64,000 nt of DNA from a bacterium UBP8_UBA817 (GTDB lineage Bacteria > Margulisbacteria > Marinamargulisbacteria > SXXA01 > SICP01), in NCBI GenBank assembly GCA_945888435.1, contig CAMCZW010000006.1, positions 2,509-66,508 of the forward strand, given 5' to 3'. The position numbers and the translations under genes were made by a program. Positions 39,519 to 50,237 of this stretch are shown here, piece by piece (position 1 is the stretch's first letter; each line of letters begins with the position of its first letter). The notes beneath the pieces are model-generated. The model saw nothing but the letters and a program-made list of their open reading frames with translations, was not told the origin of the DNA and made no database searches.

Positions 39519-40445
39519 ATGGAACCCATGCAGGCAAAAAAAATAAAAACTCGTCAATTTTTTAATCTGGCAACCATACTTTTGGCAACCTATGTCATCC
39601 TATTATTCATATCAAGCACCCCCTTCGCTCAAGTAAGTAAGCTCAACAAAACCGAATTCGTCTTCGGCAACGGCTCCGGCTGGGAATCCGTCGGCACCAA
39701 CGCAACTCCATCGATGCGCGCAAAACTTCCTGTGATGTTAAGAAGTGGCAGAACTATAGAGAGCATTTTAAATGATTCAAGCGCAAGTTTTTATCAACAA
39801 TTCACAACCCCAACCCTTATGATCAATGCCATCAAAGATAGAATGTTAGGAATGATCGCTTCATTTGCCTACGTTCCAAATGCAAACACCGGCTGGCTAG
39901 TATGCGATGGATCAGAATACAGCACCGCCCAATACCAACAACTAGCAAACTTATTACGTGCCACATACAGCACAGCTGGAACAGGGCACCTCAATTCAGA
40001 TGGGGATTGGGCAGGAAGATTTAAAGTTCCAGATTTGAGAGGGTTATTTATTATGGGAAGTACCTCTACGACCAATGTAACAACAATCAATATTGTCAGT
40101 ACCATACCCCTACATACACATTTCTTCACAGCCGCTGGTAGTAAACAAATCAACACGCCAGCCGCATCAAGTGCAGCACATACTCACACCATCAAATCAC
40201 TATTAGAATCCTCAATGAATACAGATTTCGCTACGGATTCAGGATCAGGACTTCGTCGTGGGTCAAGCAGTGATGCCATACCAGATACCGTCTTCTCCAC
40301 AGTAAATAACCATAGCCATACATTTCCAGCATTAACCATGAGATATGGAGTTTCAACTCAATCATTAACACCAGCAAGACTAATAACTGAAAATCGACCC
40401 CCAAATGCAGCGGTTATTTTTTGTATTTATTCAGGGGTCCCATAA
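39519..40445 (+). CDS. secreted phage-tail-collar-domain protein, paralogue 1
   Basis: Signal/TM segment LATILLATYVILLFISSTPFAQV. Collar motif GMIASFAY..GWLVCDGSEYS..YQQLANLL..GRFKVPDLRGLF. Three HxH sites (LHTHFF, AHTHTI, NHSHTF). Confidence 0.8.
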   Translation: MEPMQAKKIKTRQFFNLATILLATYVILLFISSTPFAQVSKLNKTEFVFGNGSGWESVGTNATPSMRAKLPVMLRSGRTIESILNDSSASFYQQFTTPTLMINAIKDRMLGMIASFAYVPNANTGWLVCDGSEYSTAQYQQLANLLRATYSTAGTGHLNSDGDWAGRFKVPDLRGLFIMGSTSTTNVTTINIVSTIPLHTHFFTAAGSKQINTPAASSAAHTHTIKSLLESSMNTDFATDSGSGLRRGSSSDAIPDTVFSTVNNHSHTFPALTMRYGVSTQSLTPARLITENRPPNAAVIFCIYSGVP

Positions 40446-40447
40446 CA

Positions 40448-41449
40448 ATGAAAATCAAATTATTCGCAGTTATTTTTATCCTGTTAAGCATAAAAAATCC
40501 AATATGGTCAGCACGGTCAGGATTTTCAGCAAATCAAATTATATTTCAAGATGGATCCGGCTGGAAAGAAGCAACAAGTAATGTCTGTGGAACATCGGTT
40601 CAAGTGTTACAAGCGGTAGGAACAACGATACTCTCAAATGGAGTCGTATTAGATACTACCATCGGAACAGTCAGAAATTTTATAGATACATCTGTAATTG
40701 GGATGATTGTACCTTTCGCAAGCACACAAGTTCCACCTGGCTGGCTTCCTTGCGCAGGGCAAATCATTACTGTCACTTCAGTCTCTAATTGCGATTATCA
40801 GCAACTCGCGGACAAAATCCAGACAACTTGGGGCCCCGCAGCCAGTCCAGGGAGCATGGTCGGTGGAAAATTCGTAGGCCGCTTTCAATTACCAGATCTG
40901 AGAGGCCAATTTCTAAGAGGCGCATTAACCATTGATAATGCAGGAACTACCACCGTCGCAAGTCGAGAATCGGTTCTTCTTAATCCTGCAGATTACCCAC
41001 GTTACCGCGACCCAGACTTTGGAAGCCAAATCACATATAGTGGTCTAAATAACGGTACACTTGGAAGTTATCAGCCTTCTGGATTTACAAGCCACTCAAC
41101 TGAACATAACTTCACAATCGATGCAAGTTCAACAAGCGCTGTAGGCGAATCCCACAGCCACGCATCCGGCCAAATTACCCGCGCTGATGGTTATCACTTT
41201 TACTATCCTGAGGCCGTATCGGGAGTAGAGGGGTATGATGATGTGGATAATCATGACACGCTTTTTACTGATGATGACGGCTCTGATGATAATTATCATG
41301 GAACTTCCCCCGCGCTATCCGGTAACACTGGCTCTGGTACCGAAACCCATTCTCATACTTTTGCACCTACTATTTCTCAAGCAGAAAGCATAAGTAACCC
41401 ACATTCATACCCGCAAAATGCAGCATTCACATTTGGAATAAGGTATTAA
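40448..41449 (+). CDS. secreted phage-tail-collar-domain protein, paralogue 2
   Basis: The start is at ATG 40448 (MKIKLFAVIFILLS.. signal peptide). GMIVPFAS..GWLPCAGQ..YQQLADKI..GRFQLPDLRGQFLRG. His sites HSTEHNF, SHSHAS and THSHTF, plus an Asp-rich stretch. Confidence 0.8.
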   Translation: MKIKLFAVIFILLSIKNPIWSARSGFSANQIIFQDGSGWKEATSNVCGTSVQVLQAVGTTILSNGVVLDTTIGTVRNFIDTSVIGMIVPFASTQVPPGWLPCAGQIITVTSVSNCDYQQLADKIQTTWGPAASPGSMVGGKFVGRFQLPDLRGQFLRGALTIDNAGTTTVASRESVLLNPADYPRYRDPDFGSQITYSGLNNGTLGSYQPSGFTSHSTEHNFTIDASSTSAVGESHSHASGQITRADGYHFYYPEAVSGVEGYDDVDNHDTLFTDDDGSDDNYHGTSPALSGNTGSGTETHSHTFAPTISQAESISNPHSYPQNAAFTFGIRY

Positions 41450-41450
41450 G

Positions 41451-42347
41451 ATGAAAAAAATAAAACCCTTCTCATTATTAATCTGCATACTAGTTAGCCT
41501 ACTCCTATTTCCATACCAGCTAGTATCTGAATCCTATTTCAAACAAGATAGACTTCAATTTAAAGGAGGAAATGCATGGATCCCAACAACAAATGGCTCA
41601 ACAGAAGCAATTCTATTCTCAGGAACCGCCCTCACCCTTAGCAATGGAACATTCATCGACTCCGCTGACAAAAACATACTTCACTATGTTGCACCTTTAG
41701 TTGGCTCCATTATGGCATTTTCAATGTCAGGCACCTCAAATATCCCAGACTCCTGGTTAGTATGCGATGGAAGTGAAGTCAGAAAAACAGACTATCCTAT
41801 TTTATACAATACCATTGGAGACCTGTGGGGGACATCATCGGACCCTTCCAGATTTAAACTACCAGATTTAAGAAACTTCTTTCTTAGAGGAGCAGATAAT
41901 TTTGGAACTGGAGGTGGTGCAACTGGCGCCGCAACTAGAGATACCCGACCAAGATATACGACAATCGCATTTTCAGCTGTCAATTCCAGCACAATTAAAA
42001 CTGGATCTTATCAGCCAAATGAAATTTCCACACATACTCATGCGTTATCCATCACAGAAACTAGCAATACAGAAAGCAATGAACACACACATTCAATGAC
42101 TAATTTACATACCAACGACTTTAGAAATGGCGATGGCGCAGATGGCAATAATATTACCCTCTATGGCAATGATTCAAACTCATCAACAATAGTCGGGGCT
42201 ACGGTCTCAGGGGTAGCAGTCGGAACTCATACTCACACATATACATTCCCTAATACGCAAAGTGGCTTCGCGGGGGCAAATTTAACTGTGCACGGCGTCC
42301 CCAAAAGAATCCATCTCATGTACTGCATAAAATATGAACCTATTTAA
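41451..42347 (+). CDS. secreted phage-tail-collar-domain protein, paralogue 3
   Basis: Signal peptide MKKIKPFSLLICILVSLLLF. GSIMAFSM..SWLVCDGSEV..YPILYNTIG..SRFKLPDLRNFFLRG. THTHAL, EHTHSM and THTHTY. Confidence 0.8.
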   Translation: MKKIKPFSLLICILVSLLLFPYQLVSESYFKQDRLQFKGGNAWIPTTNGSTEAILFSGTALTLSNGTFIDSADKNILHYVAPLVGSIMAFSMSGTSNIPDSWLVCDGSEVRKTDYPILYNTIGDLWGTSSDPSRFKLPDLRNFFLRGADNFGTGGGATGAATRDTRPRYTTIAFSAVNSSTIKTGSYQPNEISTHTHALSITETSNTESNEHTHSMTNLHTNDFRNGDGADGNNITLYGNDSNSSTIVGATVSGVAVGTHTHTYTFPNTQSGFAGANLTVHGVPKRIHLMYCIKYEPI

Positions 42348-43668
42348 TAACAGTCGATCTAACGGCTTACCGTTATATTTATTCAGAATTGTCTTCGGAG
42401 TATTTTTACTTTTATCGTCCTTAAGCATCATAAAAAAAATAACACTAAGACATATTATGCATACCGCAGAAATATATATCCCCTACTTTAACTTTATTCC
42501 ATTACCATCATACACAGCATCACTAATACTAGTGTGTACATTATCACTACTATCCATCTTTTTTATGATTGGATACAGATTCAAGCTAGCAAGCGGGCTA
42601 ATATTCCTCATAAGCCTTTATTTCTTTTCTCTCCATATGGAAAGGTTTAATAACCATTATTACCTTGTCTTATTAATCCTTTTGCTCTTTACAGTCTCCG
42701 ATGCAGGGAAAGGACTTTCTTTAACAAAAGAGAAAGCCCCAGAATCGATACCAAGCTGGCAATTAAACCTGCTTCGCTTTCAGTGTGCCATCCCCTATTT
42801 TTTTAGTGGCATTCAAAAATTACTAGATAATGATTGGAGAAGTGGCGCATTAATGCAACATAGACTAAGAAATCTAACTCCTCATAGTTTATTCAGTCAG
42901 ATAGACTCCTATACCATTGGTTCAATAGTAGCAAAATTAGCAATTACATTTGATATTGCCATTGGATTTTTACTTATAAACAAAAAAACCAGGCGATGGG
43001 CTGCGATTCCATTCCTTGGCTTTCACTTAATCAATCATTTTATAATATTTGGTAAAATTGCAGGAAGAGATTCTGTAGGTGTTTTCCCACATATTGCCAT
43101 CGCAAGCCTGATTATCTTTTTTGACGGAGATGAAATTTCAAAAGGACTATCAATCCTAAAAGAGAAGTTTAATCAGTTTCAATTAAAGCTAAGTAACCAG
43201 GTCTTAACTCTTCAAAAATCAATTTTTCGCCCCTATATTGTATCGATAATACTTTCAATCATTATATTATTTCCAATATACAGATATGCAAATTACACGC
43301 AGACATATTGGAAAGATTTAAGAATTGGGACATGGAATAGCCATGCTCTTAAAAAAACTGGATTTCTAGATATTTACTACCAACATAATCAAACAGGGGA
43401 ATGGATTTTATATATCCCTCGTACTAATTTATTTATACCCCATTATAAAGCATTAGAATCGCCAGAAGGTCATTATCAATTAGCTCAAAATCTTAAATCT
43501 CAAATGGAATCAACAGGATTATTTGTCCCCTATGTTGGATTTATTTCCGAAATTGTAATCAATGGAAGTAAAGTGAAAAAATTTCAAGGAATTCTTCCTT
43601 GGGAAGAATTAACAGAGCAATTATTTGAAACTGAGTTCACAAAATCCATTCCAGAAACAAAGCAATAA
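42334..43668 (+). CDS. vitamin K-dependent gamma-carboxylase-like (HTTM) polytopic membrane protein 1
   Basis: 444 aa with [58 protein letters not shown] and [10 protein letters not shown], plus a C-terminal soluble domain. The ATG overlaps the upstream stop codon by 14 nt. Confidence 0.75.
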   Translation: [444 protein letters not shown]

Positions 43669-43670
43669 TC

Positions 43671-45008
43671 ATGAACAATCAAAAAAATACTTCAACTAGT
43701 ATCGAAAATTTAATATTAACACCCGTGATTAACCATTCCTTGATTTTATTTAAAATTATGATTGGGGTATTAATCTCATTTCTTGCAATCAGAAATATTT
43801 ACTTTGATTTTATCCATACCGCTTATATCAACAATACGTTCTACTGGCCAATATGGCCTCAAATGGCGCAACACATCCCAAGATCAATGTTTACCTATCT
43901 CAATCTCGGAACTCTTCTCTTCGGCATTCAAATCGCAAGACAAAAATGGGGAGCCTGGAGCTATTTTGGATATCTAATATGCTATTTACCCCTATTTACA
44001 TTTAATTACACGTATTATGAAGATTACCAATTACTACTCATCACTATTTGCGTATTACTAAGCTTAACAAGTCATCAAAAAGCAATAAAATCTGCACAAA
44101 TACAAAGCTGGGAAATTTTAATATTTAAGTTATTATTTTCCAGTATTTTACTATGGAGAGTAATCGCATATCTTAATATAGCCTGGCTCTCAGGTACCAC
44201 CCTTAAAACAGTTCTAGCTCCTACTGTATTAAAAAATCTGCTATTCAGTCCTTCAAATTGGATAATAATAGCGATAAGTATTAGTCTACCGATATTTGAA
44301 TGTTGCCTAGCACTAATCCCATGGAAATTCCCCAAATTAATCCCCGGATTATGGATCGGTCTTTTACTTTATTTCTATACCAATATTTTTTTCGACAGTG
44401 AATTTCAGTATAGTCAAATGCCTCTATTATTATTTGCGTTAAGCACCCTATTTTTACCAGCGGATTACCCTAAAAACTTCATCAAAAAAATAACTCAGCT
44501 ATTAGATAAGATTATCCAGGCTGGAAAGTCGATAAGCACTCCATCTCAAAATTCCACTCAACAGATATCACCTACAGTAAAAACCTTAATCGCAGTCTAT
44601 GTAATTATCCAGTTAATAATTCCATTGAATGTATACACGATATTACCAAATCATAAATGGGTAATAACCTATCCCACCTTCTCTTGGTCAATGAAAAAAC
44701 AAAGGACCGTTCAATATGGCTATCTCACACTAGTCAACCCAACTACAAAAGAAACATCACAGATAAAACCGCCTGATGGTGTATTAGATACTCCGCTAAC
44801 ACTATTAATATATGCCCATCAATTAAGAGATTCTTACAAAAGCCAATATGGAGTAACACCCGAAATCTACGCTCATTTAAGAAAATCAATTAATAATCGT
44901 CCTATAACACCCTACACAAATCCAGAAATTGATTTATCCAAAGTTAATTATCAATTTGGAAAATCCCCATCATGGATACTCCCTCAACCTGAAAACTACT
45001 TCAAGTAG
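43671..45008 (+). CDS. vitamin K-dependent gamma-carboxylase-like (HTTM) membrane protein 2, divergent
   Basis: 445 aa with the same architecture. C-terminal TFSWSMKKQ and GVTPEIYAHLRKSINNRPITPYTNPEIDL resemble the GGCX lumenal domain. The NNH and GxxK..DW segments are degenerate. Confidence 0.65.
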   Translation: MNNQKNTSTSIENLILTPVINHSLILFKIMIGVLISFLAIRNIYFDFIHTAYINNTFYWPIWPQMAQHIPRSMFTYLNLGTLLFGIQIARQKWGAWSYFGYLICYLPLFTFNYTYYEDYQLLLITICVLLSLTSHQKAIKSAQIQSWEILIFKLLFSSILLWRVIAYLNIAWLSGTTLKTVLAPTVLKNLLFSPSNWIIIAISISLPIFECCLALIPWKFPKLIPGLWIGLLLYFYTNIFFDSEFQYSQMPLLLFALSTLFLPADYPKNFIKKITQLLDKIIQAGKSISTPSQNSTQQISPTVKTLIAVYVIIQLIIPLNVYTILPNHKWVITYPTFSWSMKKQRTVQYGYLTLVNPTTKETSQIKPPDGVLDTPLTLLIYAHQLRDSYKSQYGVTPEIYAHLRKSINNRPITPYTNPEIDLSKVNYQFGKSPSWILPQPENYFK

Positions 45009-45090: not shown

Positions 45091-47415
45091 ATGCCAGTAT
45101 ACGGAATAGCAACAGCCGAACCAAAAATTCAACCAACAAAAGTGATGGTGGTTAATCAGGGATCAAATCCTGGTTCTATTGCTTCATCAATAAGCAATTT
45201 AGTAACAACATCAGGGCTAACACTTGCATCCTGGCTAGGATGGGTAAATCCAACTCCAGCACCTATAACCACTCACCCAGTAATACAATCCAAAAGTAAA
45301 ATCGTGACAGAAAACCCGGTACCAGCAAAAGAGAACCCTCATAGATCCAGAAGAGTAACTGAAAGTATCACAATAACAGAGGAATCAAGAGCCCTTGTTA
45401 ACACCCCAGGCCTAGGGAATTTTAATGAAAACAGCTTTGGTAGTCTTGACCACCGTTTTGCGATATCTATCTGGGGGCGAACATTAGATGCTAACGGAAC
45501 ACGAATACCAACAGAGCTATGGCTAAGTTTTTTAACGCTATCCAGTTCAGGCGACTACCGTACTCAAAATCATGAAATTATGATCAGCAGAGCAAGTGAA
45601 AGTCAACAAATTATAAAGAATGGAGGTTTTGGTATACTGTTTCTAAATTCAAAAGCAATAGTGCGCTGGGAAACACTCACAACTGGAGCAGATTCCAACC
45701 TCGCAAGCGCCTATACTCGGCATGCTAAAGTAGTAGATTTAGCCACAGGTGGACTTAGTGAATTAGAAATACCCAATATGATCCCACTTTCATTAAGCTC
45801 AACTACAGGTATTATGCTGGCATTACAGGGCAGCAATGGTCTCAATGCGACCTTAGTGACAGAAAATCCAGATGGGAGCATTACACAAACTCCGACACTC
45901 ATCCCTGGAATTACAACCGATTCAATCCGTTTCGGGGCGGTTAATTTACAAGGTCTAAAAAATAATAGCACTTCATTTTTTTTATCCACACTCACACAAT
46001 GTGCCATGTGCAGTATTCAGCCAGATAACACCATCACTTCAGAGATGCTACCTCTTGATCCCTCCTTATTTAGCAGTATCCCAGGGGCATCAACAACTAC
46101 TTTTGCTCCCGGTGTGATTTCATATTCTGCAAGACAAACACCTCCTGTTTCAATTAGATCACAAGCATTAGGCCAATTCACATTAATTTGCAATCTCAAA
46201 ACAGGGGCGTCTCAATTATATGACGGAATTACGCTTGGACCCGTATTTACACTACCGCCAGGCTCCTTACATAATCAAAATATTATTGAAGTCCCCAAAA
46301 TGGTTAGCCCCCCCCAATCCAATCATTTTTTGATGTATAACACAGTTGATAGAACCAGTATAAATATTGCACATCTATCATTAAATTCAACCCAAAAAAC
46401 AATTGAAGTCGAGTCTACATTTACAATTTCACAAAGCCATCCTGAGACAAGTGAAGCATTAAATCTATCCCCATTAGTCATAAAAGACCCAAATGGAGAC
46501 GCCGAAGTAATATCATTTTCTTGTGCACAAACTAATCCGCAAAGTTGTCAGGTAGATGCTTACAGATTAAATCCTCTCACCCATGATGCATCGCTACTAG
46601 GACATCTCGAACTTCCTGATGTTGAAAGTCGTACAAGCCGGGCGATGATAGCCATGAATAATAATAAAATCCAAATGATCTTCCCAAATGGGGCATCAAG
46701 CAATCCACTGGAAACGCGAGTATTTCTCCTACAGTATGTCGAGCGAGCGACCTCAACAAGTACTCAAAGACCATCAACCGCCACAACAACACCAAGAACC
46801 GCATCTAGTTCTAGTTCTAGTTCTAGTTCTAGTTCTAGTTCTACCCGTCAACCCACTAGCGCCACTCAAAATCAAGGTGTCGACGCAGTAGAGTCATCAT
46901 CAAGCAAAGGTGACGCAATCCTAAACACCACAAGTATTGCCGGTATTATTGTAGCGGGAGTAATTGTTGTAGCGGGAGTAATTATCGCAGTTGTCATATG
47001 TAACAGAGGCGACAAAAAAACACACCCAACAATGCTAGTCGTTACTCAAGCGGCTTTCGACCAGATGTTAGGTGATGGAAGCGTAGTCAATCCAAAAGAT
47101 CTAAAAATATTACGCGCCTCAGCATCCTTAAATGGACTCCCTACATCAAAAATACATCAACAAAGAACTGCAGTAGATGAAGAAGATCCCGATGCAACTT
47201 ATCAAGATATATCAAACGTTGGTCCAGGGGTTAGGATGGCGAGCCACCCTAGTTTTCCACACTACGAGGAACCAGTACCATTTGGCGGCCACGGCTACTT
47301 ACAAGTAAGCGCAGAAGGTCAAGGTCAAGGCCCAGTGTCAAATCCTACATACGACACGGCTTGCGAAAGCTACTACGACCCAGCAACGCTAAAAGGCTTA
47401 GACGTAACCAAATAG
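45091..47415 (+). CDS. large anchored surface protein A (conserved leader, unknown ectodomain, Ser/Thr/Pro stalk, TM helix, Tyr-rich tail)
   Basis: 774 aa with GGGGGA upstream. Leader LTLASWLGWVNPTPAPITTHPV..ENPHRSRR, stalk TSTSTQRPSTATTTPRTAS(13)TR, TM IAGIIVAGVIVVAGVIIAVVIC followed by NRGDKK. Paralogue of 47555-49576. Confidence 0.8.
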   Translation: MPVYGIATAEPKIQPTKVMVVNQGSNPGSIASSISNLVTTSGLTLASWLGWVNPTPAPITTHPVIQSKSKIVTENPVPAKENPHRSRRVTESITITEESRALVNTPGLGNFNENSFGSLDHRFAISIWGRTLDANGTRIPTELWLSFLTLSSSGDYRTQNHEIMISRASESQQIIKNGGFGILFLNSKAIVRWETLTTGADSNLASAYTRHAKVVDLATGGLSELEIPNMIPLSLSSTTGIMLALQGSNGLNATLVTENPDGSITQTPTLIPGITTDSIRFGAVNLQGLKNNSTSFFLSTLTQCAMCSIQPDNTITSEMLPLDPSLFSSIPGASTTTFAPGVISYSARQTPPVSIRSQALGQFTLICNLKTGASQLYDGITLGPVFTLPPGSLHNQNIIEVPKMVSPPQSNHFLMYNTVDRTSINIAHLSLNSTQKTIEVESTFTISQSHPETSEALNLSPLVIKDPNGDAEVISFSCAQTNPQSCQVDAYRLNPLTHDASLLGHLELPDVESRTSRAMIAMNNNKIQMIFPNGASSNPLETRVFLLQYVERATSTSTQRPSTATTTPRTASSSSSSSSSSSSSTRQPTSATQNQGVDAVESSSSKGDAILNTTSIAGIIVAGVIVVAGVIIAVVICNRGDKKTHPTMLVVTQAAFDQMLGDGSVVNPKDLKILRASASLNGLPTSKIHQQRTAVDEEDPDATYQDISNVGPGVRMASHPSFPHYEEPVPFGGHGYLQVSAEGQGQGPVSNPTYDTACESYYDPATLKGLDVTK
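46804..46842 (+). repeat. hexanucleotide microsatellite (TCTAGT) x 6.5 encoding poly-Ser
   Basis: tctagt is repeated six times, followed by tct. It is in frame inside surface protein A. Confidence 0.95.
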
Positions 47416-47554
47416 GCTAAACCCTAGCCGCCTAAATCCGAGGGGACTGTTACCTTAACATTCCCCTCAACAATAAAAATAGTTACGAAATGATTGACGA
47501 TTCACAAAAAAATAATTACTCTTCTGGAAGATATCGTAGCCAAGAAGGGAAAAA

Positions 47555-49576
47555 ATGAAACCAACCGAAATCACCAGCGTAATTCCAAGACCCCAAATTC
47601 AAACATCCTCACCCGCCACCCAATCCCAAAGATCAGACATCGCACCAAGCGGTGGCATAGCAGACACTATAAGCCGTACAGTGCAGACATCAGGGCAAAC
47701 ACTTGCATCCTGGCTAGGATGGGTAAATCCAACACCAGCGCCTATAACCACTCACCCAGTACCAAAATCCAAAAGTAAAGTCGTGACAGAAAACCCTGTA
47801 CCAGCAAAAGAGAACCCTCATAGATCCAATAGATCCAGAAGAGAAGCTTTAAGTTTCCAACAAGACGCTGTACAACTTCTTTCTCCTCAATCATCTGACT
47901 TCGAAGACTTTGAAGCGGCAAAAACTCTTAATAAAGAATATTTAACATTAACTTGGTTTAAAGAATTATCTATAGGATTTAAAATTGGATCTCCAGAATT
48001 TCAAGGAGAAGAGCATTCGCTAGTTATCCTCAAAAGATCACCTTCTGGACTCTACACCCCATTAACCCCTTCAGCAGTGATCATCAATACCCCTGCGCAA
48101 GATCGAGATCCAAGTAAAAACCCACCATTTTTAGCATTTGAAAAGACCGGCCTCATCGGAGTAATCGAACGTGTAATCCTTCAAAACGGCACCATAATCA
48201 ATCAGCAATCGGCCACAAAACTCAATTTGGAAACAGGTCAATTAGATGGCCAACTACACCCTGGTTACCTAAATTCGGTTAAACTAACCTCGTCGACAGG
48301 GGTATTAATTTCTCAAGAAGGGACTGGAGAGTTAAATGCATTAATGATTAAAGAAAATGCGGATGGAACAATAACCGGAACCCCCATTACACTCCCGGGA
48401 TTATCAGCAAACCGCAACACAGCAATCCAGACAGCAAGACTAACAGATAATTCGTTTTTAATTAAACTAGAGTCTACCTTAGCAAGGTTAACACTTAATG
48501 AAGATCATTCAGTAACTGTAGTGACCCTTTCAACAAGTTTATCCCCCAATGGAAATATCATGACATCTCCTATATTCGGAAATAATCTCTTGATTACTGA
48601 ATCAGCAATCTCTTCCATGGGCCGATTTTACAATGGAACCTCACTTGGCCAGCCATTTCCCATACCATTATCATTTAGCTACTCACCTGAAATAATTGAC
48701 ATCTCTCAAACCCCGTCAGGAAATAGAGAATTCCTATTCCAGACTCCTTCATTCCAGGCTCCTTCTGGAATCATAGGAAGCATTTCAATAGGTAAAGCAT
48801 CCTATAACCCACAAACAAATACTCTAGATTTTCAAGGAACAGCAACAATCAATGCGCATGCCTCGCAAGCCGCTATCATAGCCGGAGTAATGACAGATGC
48901 TGATGTCCAAGCAGGTCTTGGCGGCCCTGGAATCATTTCGTTTTCATGCACAGTTGACCAATGCCAAGTAAATGCCCATCGATTAGATGTTGATGCGATG
49001 ACTACCCAACACTTAGTCTCACAAAATGTATCAGATATCAGCGGACTTTTTTCAGGTAAAATGGAAATCACAGGTCCAAACATCCAAGTCTTTACCTTAC
49101 AAGAAAATCCAATGCATATGGCTATCACAAAGCTATTCATGTTAAAAGGGATTCCAGTAGCCAATACAACGACAACACCCAGACCAGCCTCATCTAGCCA
49201 ATCTATGCCACCAACTTCAGCCGCACCATCATCACCTTCCACGTCAATAACAATCCGCCCTACTACAGTAAGCCGACCCCCAGATCCGACGACAACTTTA
49301 AGATCAACCTCTTCCAGCTCTCAAACAAAACAAAATGACACAATCACTGATGCCCCCCAAGTCAGCCGCAGTCTCGACACTGAAACGTTAGTTGGCATTA
49401 TTGCAGGCGCAGTTGCAGGAGGTGTCGCACTAAGCATCCTCGGCTACCTAGTCTACTCAAAAATCAGAGGACTTCGGGTAGTCCAGTCAACCGAATTCAA
49501 GATAGCCGATGCGTTACAAAAGCTACCAGGGGTTAATCCAGATAATTTTGGATTTAACGAAACAGAAATCCTCTAA
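47555..49576 (+). CDS. large anchored surface protein B (paralogue of A)
   Basis: 673 aa with the same leader (QTLASWLGWVNPTPAPITTHPV..ENPHRSNRSRR). Shared blocks TSSTGV..ENADGTITGTP and ISFSC..CQVNAHRL. S/T/P stalk, TM LVGIIAGAVAGGVALSILGYLVY and a short tail. Confidence 0.8.
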   Translation: MKPTEITSVIPRPQIQTSSPATQSQRSDIAPSGGIADTISRTVQTSGQTLASWLGWVNPTPAPITTHPVPKSKSKVVTENPVPAKENPHRSNRSRREALSFQQDAVQLLSPQSSDFEDFEAAKTLNKEYLTLTWFKELSIGFKIGSPEFQGEEHSLVILKRSPSGLYTPLTPSAVIINTPAQDRDPSKNPPFLAFEKTGLIGVIERVILQNGTIINQQSATKLNLETGQLDGQLHPGYLNSVKLTSSTGVLISQEGTGELNALMIKENADGTITGTPITLPGLSANRNTAIQTARLTDNSFLIKLESTLARLTLNEDHSVTVVTLSTSLSPNGNIMTSPIFGNNLLITESAISSMGRFYNGTSLGQPFPIPLSFSYSPEIIDISQTPSGNREFLFQTPSFQAPSGIIGSISIGKASYNPQTNTLDFQGTATINAHASQAAIIAGVMTDADVQAGLGGPGIISFSCTVDQCQVNAHRLDVDAMTTQHLVSQNVSDISGLFSGKMEITGPNIQVFTLQENPMHMAITKLFMLKGIPVANTTTTPRPASSSQSMPPTSAAPSSPSTSITIRPTTVSRPPDPTTTLRSTSSSSQTKQNDTITDAPQVSRSLDTETLVGIIAGAVAGGVALSILGYLVYSKIRGLRVVQSTEFKIADALQKLPGVNPDNFGFNETEIL

Positions 49577-49589
49577 AATAAAAGAAGCG

Positions 49590-50237
49590 TCATCCACCCA
49601 CATCCGAGGGGACTGTTACCTTAACATTCCCCTCTTCGCCCTCAGCCACTACCACGGGATACCCCGTTGCTTCAAACAATCCCGCTTCATCCGTCGTATC
49701 CAACTCTGGAAATTGACGATAAATCTTTAAAAGAATACTCACCGGAAAAACCTGCGGGGTTTGTACCCGGATAATCGACTCTCGATTAAGAGTCCCCACC
49801 ACCATCGCATTTTCAACTTGCTTTAAAGTATCCGAAACAGAAACTCCAGGGATAACCCCATGAGTAGGCGATGCCTTTTTCAACAGTCGTTTAATCAAAT
49901 CCGCACTCACCCAAGGTCGGGCGGCATCATGGATCATCACATAGTCACAATTTAAAAGGGCATTCACCCCATTTTGGACAGAACGGCATCGGGTTGCCCC
50001 ACCTTCAATCAATCTAAAGCGATCCAAAAGGTCATGGACACCCAAGAGATCTTCCATCCGAGAAAAATGATCTACAGAAACCGTCACTACCCGATCCGTA
50101 ATCATTATAAAATCATCAAATGCCCGACAGGATTTGACGATCATCGGCACCCCATCAATCGGTAAAAACTGCTTCGGAGTATCACCCCCAAATCGAGATC
50201 CAGATCCCGCTGCCGTAATCACCAACCCCACATTCAT
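49590..50237 (-). CDS. ispD: 2-C-methyl-D-erythritol 4-phosphate cytidylyltransferase
   Basis: 215 aa with ITAAGSGSRFG and C-terminal GEEGNVKVTVPSDV. Confidence 0.92.
   Translation of the reverse strand: MNVGLVITAAGSGSRFGGDTPKQFLPIDGVPMIVKSCRAFDDFIMITDRVVTVSVDHFSRMEDLLGVHDLLDRFRLIEGGATRCRSVQNGVNALLNCDYVMIHDAARPWVSADLIKRLLKKASPTHGVIPGVSVSDTLKQVENAMVVGTLNRESIIRVQTPQVFPVSILLKIYRQFPELDTTDEAGLFEATGYPVVVAEGEEGNVKVTVPSDVGG

Follow-up and report, generated by a model that had tools for sequence, protein, structure and literature searches.

A recently homogenized block in the N-terminal regions of two anciently diverged tandem genes: probable intragenomic recombination in a hypervariable locus of a Margulisbacteria-like bacterium

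A shared block in two tandem genes

The stretch of DNA analyzed here (the window, 64,000 nucleotides of contig CAMCZW010000006.1) contains a locus in which tsaD, rpoN, three collar genes, two genes of the HTTM family (HTTM1 and HTTM2) and two genes in tandem on the plus strand, A and B, follow one another, with ispD on the opposite strand (Table 1). Genes A and B share a near-identical block toward their 5' ends, in frame in both, and the origin of this block is the subject of this report.

Table 1. Coordinates of the features discussed, numbered from the first nucleotide of the window.
Feature	Position	Strand	Remarks
Three phage-tail-collar-domain genes	39519..42347	+	Signal-peptide-bearing; conserved upstream part of the same hypervariable island
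HTTM1	42334..43668	+	Vitamin K carboxylase-like membrane protein; PF05090 at 7e-38
HTTM2	43671..45008	+	Degenerate HTTM paralogue with VKGC lumenal domain (5e-17); C-terminal part hypervariable between strains
Gene A	45091..47415	+	774 amino acids; hydropathy and model; orphan family
Near-identical block, gene A copy	45208..45355	+	148 nucleotides; codons 40-88, TSGLTLASWLGWVNPTPAPITTHPVIQSKSKIVTENPVPAKENPHRSRR; alignment, repeat search and blastn
RSRR dibasic site of A	45343..45354	+	Residues 85-88; 40 residues before invariant Trp128
ispD 3'-end relic	47428..47468	-	Just downstream of gene A; with flanks reads EGNVKVTVPSDLGG up to the stop; repeat search
Gene B	47555..49576	+	673 amino acids; A-like architecture with short tail, 29% identical to A; orthologous to B' of L005 and the L006 gene
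Near-identical block, gene B copy	47687..47843	+	157 nucleotides; codons 45-96, including the 9-nucleotide tandem duplication
RSRR dibasic site of B	47831..47842	+	Residues 93-96; 38 residues before invariant Trp134
True ispD 3' end, partner of the relic	49594..49634	-	EGNVKVTVPSDVGG up to the stop; just downstream of gene B

Global nucleotide alignment of the two block copies resulted in 140 matches in 148 positions, with 8 mismatches and a single 9-nucleotide gap, and blastn returned 94.4% identity over 142 nucleotides. This is far above chance, as the background nucleotide identity of A and B is just 38-46%; BLASTP places the two whole proteins at the low identity given in Table 1, and in a codon alignment they are 33% identical over the first 39 codons and 26.5% identical in the ectodomain. 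The first-pass annotation, a reading of the sequence alone, had described exactly this combination of a near-identical leader (8 substitutions and one 9-nucleotide duplication) in genes whose remainder is only distantly similar, and the alignments bear it out. The gap is an exact tandem duplication (ATAGATCCA twice) in gene B, which converts HRSRR to HRSNRSRR as the annotation had it, although it lies at 47820-47837 and not at 47821-47838. A direct-repeat search listed the pair (family D1, 45190-45354 and 47669-47833), and no other direct repeat in the region was longer. No third copy was found in the window by blastn or tblastn, and among 5.8 billion clustered and 1.84 billion representative proteins the block was seen in no protein other than those of A/B-type genes.

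Two other origins were considered and set aside. Because the independent assemblies L001, L002 and L003 carry the block with the same paralogue-specific differences, an assembly artefact was ruled out, and an RNA element was rejected on the finding of no excess folding energy in the block (z = +1.1 and -0.3).

In the codon alignment, the block showed a synonymous divergence (dS) of 0.085 and a nonsynonymous divergence (dN) of 0.067 between A and B, whereas dS was saturated elsewhere in the genes, at 1.8 in the first 39 codons, 4.3 in the ectodomain and 1.5 in the C-terminal part. Identical residues were encoded by the identical codon in 39 of 42 cases within the block versus 38 of 105 in the ectodomain. 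Constraint on the protein level cannot preserve synonymous sites. With a dS of 0.085 against saturated flanks, the near-identity therefore points to recent common ancestry and not to protein-level constraint, and the dN/dS of ~0.8 indicates no detectable constraint since the exchange event. The comparison of synonymous divergence that the annotation had called for thus sets the leader clearly apart from the rest of the two genes, as is typical of a gene-conversion tract.

Related loci, strain variants and a second identity island

Syntenic loci were recovered through HTTM1 orthologues. One of them, L002, is 99.9% identical to the window, and L001, L003 and L004 are strains of the window's species. 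In a related species (L005), HTTM1 is 50% identical and the paralogues, here termed A' and B', are 736 and 710 amino acids long; a further contig (P0006) has two genes of 758 and 728 amino acids in the A/B positions, L006 has a B-like gene running off the contig, and the more distant L007 has the collar-HTTM module followed by further HTTM genes instead of A/B. The order of three collar genes, HTTM1, HTTM2, A and B is retained in three further lineages. By BLASTP, the window's B, the B' protein of L005 and the L006 protein form one orthologous group at ~30% identity (207 bits between the window's B and B'), and the window's A and A' have their cytoplasmic tails in common. Since B groups with its counterparts and the tail of A with that of A', the A/B duplication predates these species; by these groupings, A and B are old paralogues of a very fast-evolving family.

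The duplication is also older than the block, in that the orthologous pair of L005, the one species with a complete pair, lacks the tract. A' and B' have no leader in common, their best nucleotide match being the poly-Ser tract, and the block showed no significant similarity to the N-terminal regions of A', B' or the L006 protein, 10-54% of shuffled sequences matching the score. The same non-significant shuffle tests led us to drop the idea that B was the donor, which had drawn on a likeness between LASWLGWV and LRAFTD.LGI in the leaders of the B' and L006 proteins. Taken together, the low dS of the block, the missing RNA signal, the missing leader in L005, the dissimilar orthologous leaders and the restriction of the block to A/B-type genes argue for a recent, lineage-specific exchange between old paralogues.

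Variation among strains was scored at seven informative sites that distinguish the A-type from the B-type block. The A copies of the window, L001, L002 and L003 are A-type at all seven sites, and the B copies of the window and L002 are B-type at all seven. The copy in the B position of L001, in contrast, shows the series B, A, B, B, B, A, A and runs on into an A-type 3' flank (VTESITIT) to the end of its contig, while L012 is a chimera in which an A-type promoter and N-terminus (88% identical) lead into a block that is B-type save for one A-type site, and on into a B-type body (97%). At all four variant sites of these two copies the state is that of the other paralogue, without any new mutation, and a single 141-mer would span the mixed sites. 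The 9-nucleotide duplication is absent from the L001 copy in the B position and present in L012. The mosaicism between strains that the annotation had suggested looking for is thus present, as patchworks of both paralogue states on short metagenomic contigs, and its fallback reading of the block as a gene-conversion or recombination cassette gains support from these mosaics and chimeras. Larger changes were also seen: in L013, an A-type gene abuts ispD directly, without B, and in L016 (1136-1318), a 26-nucleotide deletion with TCC microhomology at its flanks lies inside the gene A block and shifts the frame. This last variant could reflect either a naturally occurring null allele or an error in scaffolding. 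The contigs of L001, L003 and L004 end at or within the block, as assembly breaks are expected at a repeat.

Downstream of the two genes lies a second island of identity. The ispD relic behind gene A is identical to the true ispD 3' end behind gene B at 38 of 41 positions and contains a 7-bp inverted repeat (GAGGGGA...TCCCCTC); analogously, a near-identical terminator hairpin (33 of 34 positions) follows both A' and B' in L005. With the 5' block and this 3' relic, the divergent gene bodies are bracketed by short identity islands, and recombination between the relic and the true ispD 3' end would remove B and yield the arrangement of L013.

The variability extends to the surrounding locus. Between the window and L003, tsaD has a dS of ~0 and rpoN of 0.05, and the first 88 codons of A are identical, whereas 60-codon windows through the collar, HTTM1 and HTTM2 genes (39519-45008) swing from a dS of 0 to 1-2, with amino acid identities of 56-100%. 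These swings indicate frequent recombination with divergent alleles throughout the locus, which is a hypervariable island, a recombination mosaic, in a near-clonal background.

Encoded proteins, neighboring genes and the dibasic site

Protein A consists of a disordered N-terminal region (residues 1-88), an all-beta domain, a Ser/Thr/Pro stalk with a poly-Ser tract, a transmembrane helix (~614-637) and a 137-residue tail. By hydropathy, neither A nor B has a hydrophobic segment within its first 100 residues, which agrees with the annotation in that it saw no classical signal peptide in either protein, and each has a single transmembrane helix close to the C-terminus. A Cys pair is invariant across the alignment of five A/B relatives. 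An AlphaFold2 model of A, built from three sequences, reached a predicted local distance difference test score (pLDDT) of 36, and its Foldseek matches were all beta-propellers at TM-scores of ~0.2-0.37; the ectodomain is probably of the beta-propeller class, the model serving as a hint of fold class only. Homologue searches (word-seeded, by profile over 1.84 billion representatives, and with a five-sequence profile) returned only same-species fragments; the five-sequence profile missed even the L005 proteins, probably because Ser-rich low-complexity words swamped it. Pfam and NCBIfam gave only weak mucin/transmembrane-type matches below cut-off. The proteins are best described as predicted single-pass surface proteins, in which a beta-propeller-like ectodomain is followed by a Ser/Thr stalk, then by the transmembrane helix and the cytoplasmic tail.

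Additionally, the poly-Ser tract of gene A, encoded by (TCTAGT)n at 46804-46845, varies in length between strains, the A protein of the window having 780- and 772-residue counterparts in L002 and L001, respectively. The cytoplasmic tail of A (~47002-47412) contains tyrosine motifs of eukaryotic type (NPTY, YQDI and YEEP), of which SNPTY is kept in A' and in P0027, along with MASHPS in A' and MATHPS in P0027. With its R-x-R-R site, mucin-like stalk and tyrosine-motif tail, A resembles a eukaryotic type I receptor.

Upstream, HTTM1 and HTTM2 are homologous (hhalign probability 97.8%). K162, W168 and D207 of HTTM1 align to Lys218, Trp223 and Asp263 of human GGCX, whose catalytic roles have been described (PMC12647623), and are invariant in six orthologues; a metagenome scan with the HTTM1 alignment brought up distant HTTM genes only. 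In HTTM2, Ala occupies the place of Lys218 and Leu that of Asp263, and FNNHYY is replaced by YYEDYQ, with the NNH motif lost; HTTM2 is thus probably a non-catalytic partner. All three collar-domain proteins carry repeated His-x-His after the collar domain (e.g., AHTHTI, NHSHTF, ETHSHTF and HTHTYTF). Elsewhere, a Nitrospinales metagenome-assembled genome (L011, 1-12193) has at least nine tandem full-length HTTM paralogues with VKGC lumenal domains, and in L010 (1663-9335) an HTTM gene adjoins two 1045-residue PKD/SprB proteins with a type IX secretion system sorting domain. The other scanned genes of the window are ordinary bacterial housekeeping genes; across 1-64000, every 2-kb bin shows negative GC skew and positive AT skew, irrespective of the coding strand. 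The nearest genome with an HTTM1 orthologue (55% identity) is a metagenome-assembled genome named uncultured Candidatus Marinamargulisbacteria, a group that includes an intracellular symbiont of a placozoan (PMC6784892).

The block ends in both genes at an RSRR site, which the annotation had read as the possible cleavage site of a leader working by the logic of vitamin K-dependent propeptides. The site reads RSRR in A and B, RGRR in A', EARR in B' and RDRK in the L006 protein, and in each of these five proteins an invariant Trp follows it at 37-41 residues. No other dibasic pair occurs in the N-terminal regions of A and B, whose RSRR agrees in sequence with an R-x-K/R-R processing site, cleavage itself being predicted. 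Because its position is conserved in all five family members, a cleaved pro-region ending there is plausible from the alignments, and this part of the proposal survives; the vitamin K docking logic is not supported. Propeptides of that kind are marked by Phe at -16 and Leu at -6, with Ala at -10 (PMC12647623). The residues at -16, -10 and -6 are T, A and P in A; P, N and S in B; Q, T and E in A'; V, H and K in B'; and P, K and S in the L006 protein, so that in A and B only the -10 Ala of A agrees. A Gla domain has 9-13 Glu in the ~45 residues directly after the processing site. By comparison, the 45 residues after the site contain 4, 5, 1, 3 and 4 Glu in A, B, A', B' and the L006 protein, respectively, with no conserved Glu column; in the Glu-containing sequence to which the annotation had pointed, Glu is thus neither enriched nor conserved. 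Nor is a signal peptide found ahead of the putative pro-region in A or B. The near-identity of the block informs on neither pro-region cleavage nor a docking propeptide.

Origin of the block and alternative explanations

We consider the block to be, with a probability of about 0.8, a recent intragenomic recombination (gene-conversion) tract in the disordered N-terminal region of anciently duplicated, fast-evolving tandem paralogues. Some 150 bp of the two genes have been homogenized recently. By this account, RecA-type exchange that starts from this identical stretch would keep both copies alike, and the same exchange would make the chimeras, deletions and cassette swaps of the hypervariable island. 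The N-terminal region, its sequence free to vary between species, would probably be a pro-region removed at the dibasic site. Several points weigh against this account or limit it. The flanks are too diverged to account for the start of the first exchange, a block imported from the allele of a different strain would leave a pattern no different from that of conversion between A and B, and either gene may have been the donor. Only L005 offers a complete pair from another species for comparison. The L001 and L012 junctions lie at the ends of short k141 contigs and might still be assembly chimeras, although their mixed sites are no more than one k-mer length apart, and the 41-nucleotide relic has hairpin potential and may be kept as a terminator instead of being alike by recency. 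Dibasic cleavage and surface exposure are predictions, made for proteins that have no signal peptide and, in the case of A, a poor structural model.

Selection and programmed variation offer other routes to the same pattern. If the block were an export or targeting signal, purifying selection alone might have held both copies alike since the old duplication; neither protein has a more conserved part, and strains with differing neighbor genes share it unchanged. Its synonymous sites, however, are conserved like its nonsynonymous ones (dN/dS and codon identity, above), which contradicts such an explanation, and the block is neither conserved in the orthologues nor present on any other protein, so that we regard selection alone as very improbable. 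The 5' block and the 3' island could instead be maintained as recombination handles, by which ectodomain cassettes are swapped, fused or deleted to vary a surface antigen or receptor. Two identity islands do flank a divergent body, chimeras, a locus that has lost B and a frameshifted allele occur in natural populations, the locus is hypervariable against a near-clonal background, the poly-Ser tract differs in length between strains, and the babA/babB chimeras of Helicobacter pylori are a parallel (PMC4552749). Set against this are the presence of only two cassettes with no silent-copy archive within the window, the absence of the 5' island from L005 and the passive formation of the same patterns by any repeat; programmed variation is rather unlikely in our view.

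The vitamin K analogy requires that the leader dock HTTM1/HTTM2, that downstream residues be modified (e.g., carboxylated) and that the leader then be cut at RSRR. Consistent with this, the collar-HTTM-A-B synteny is kept in three further lineages, HTTM1 retains the equivalents of the GGCX residues (PMC12647623), HTTM2 has the VKGC lumenal domain that forms the propeptide clamp in GGCX, and the dibasic site is conserved in position and agrees with R-x-K/R-R. Furthermore, bacterial HTTM proteins act in precursor maturation (SdpB/YitO; PMC6818787), and carboxylation by a bacterial HTTM protein is known (MloH; cited in bioRxiv 10.64898/2026.08.19.745780). On the other side, the leader is unconserved between species and between A' and B', positions -16 and -6 are non-hydrophobic, just 1-5 Glu follow the site and none at a conserved position, there is no signal peptide, and SWLGWV, the hydrophobic motif, is ~40 residues away from the site and not 6-17. 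HTTM2 lacks the catalytic Lys and Asp, its lumenal part is strongly variable between strains with identical leaders, and in L007 the collar-HTTM module is adjoined by more HTTM genes and not by A/B; the near-identity, moreover, is already accounted for by recombination. The low dS against saturated flanks, the leaderless A'/B' pair, the absent signature and the dissimilar orthologous leaders leave a vitamin K-type docking propeptide unsupported, and the full docking-and-modification logic unlikely.

We judge it somewhat less likely still that A and B are substrates of a two-component vitamin K carboxylase-like machine, in which HTTM1 would be catalytic and HTTM2 a dead clamp or receptor, the signal-less pro-region would engage the machine for modification and/or export before being cut off at the dibasic site, and gene conversion would see to it that both pro-regions continue to fit the same partner. 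If true, A and B would reveal the first bacterial HTTM system that modifies proteins under the direction of a leader, with substrates of eukaryote-like receptor layout (furin-type site, mucin-like stalk and NPxY tail). A twin-arginine (Tat) signal, S-R-R with a hydrophobic stretch behind it, could be suggested by the S-R-R of A and B and the lack of a Sec signal, and can be given almost no weight: in Tat signal peptides the consensus S/T-R-R-x-F-L-K and the uncharged hydrophobic region after it are found close to the N-terminus, whereas here the site ends at residues 88 and 96, the sequence after it (VTESITITEESR and EALSFQQDAV) carries several Glu, Asp and Arg and is non-hydrophobic, and no 12-residue segment among the first 100 residues exceeds a hydropathy of 1.04. 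The candidate was rejected.

The recombination account has a well-described counterpart in the babA/babB/babC genes of H. pylori, paralogous surface-protein genes for which concerted evolution and gene conversion are reported (PMC4552749, citing Pride and Blaser, 2002). As there, near-identical end segments enclose a divergent middle, intragenomic recombination yields chimeric genes in natural isolates, the copy number of the locus varies and a repeat tract changes length. Unlike the bab genes, A and B are in tandem, their 5' island is internal (codons 40-88) and is not a signal peptide or N-terminus, their 3' island lies outside the gene, in the ispD relic, and the products are single-pass proteins and not beta-barrels; their bearer is an uncultured Margulisbacteria-like bacterium without a known host.

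Vitamin K-dependent precursors (PMC12647623) resemble A and B in having an N-terminal segment that ends in R-x-R-R just before the mature domain, and in A and B carboxylase-family genes adjoin, with the Lys218, Trp223 and Asp263 equivalents kept in HTTM1. They differ in the signal peptide, the -16 Phe and -6 Leu, the Glu-rich Gla domain and a leader conserved across species, all of which A and B lack, and GGCX is a single enzyme, which is here split into a catalytic-looking and a degenerate paralogue of ~445 residues each. In the SdpABC/YitPOM systems of Bacillus subtilis, the HTTM-family SdpB/YitO is needed for proteolytic maturation of a precursor encoded next to it (PMC6818787), and a bacterial HTTM-family gene likewise stands beside a candidate precursor gene here. 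SdpC, however, carries a Sec signal and gives rise to a toxin of 42 residues, whereas A and B are membrane proteins of 670-770 residues; no SdpA-like gene is present at this locus, and no substrate homology was seen, none having been searched for. MloH carboxylates an aspartyl residue of a polyketide-peptide intermediate and not a leader-bearing protein (bioRxiv 10.64898/2026.08.19.745780). Like MloH and the DUF5819-HTTM complexes, the HTTM pair belongs to the bacterial vitamin K carboxylase homologues, some of which form two-protein complexes, although the partner here is a second HTTM paralogue and not DUF5819.

The mechanism we favor is thus an ordinary event of a known kind (cf. babA/babB; PMC4552749), and it is the setting that is new and poorly known: the locus is unusual in combining orphan, eukaryote-like single-pass proteins without a signal peptide, an active-looking and a degenerate HTTM protein, and hypervariability. 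The conserved dibasic position together with the missing signal peptide raises the testable question of how the ectodomain is exported and matured and what part the HTTM pair plays. For the block itself, the unsupported analogy to a bacterial Gla-type propeptide gives way to concerted evolution, of which the metagenomes of this uncultured lineage show direct traces in the form of chimeric, deleted and mosaic loci. A hypervariable island of three collar proteins, an HTTM pair and two orphan propeller-type membrane proteins within near-clonal genomes is a pattern typical of cell-surface loci under diversifying selection.

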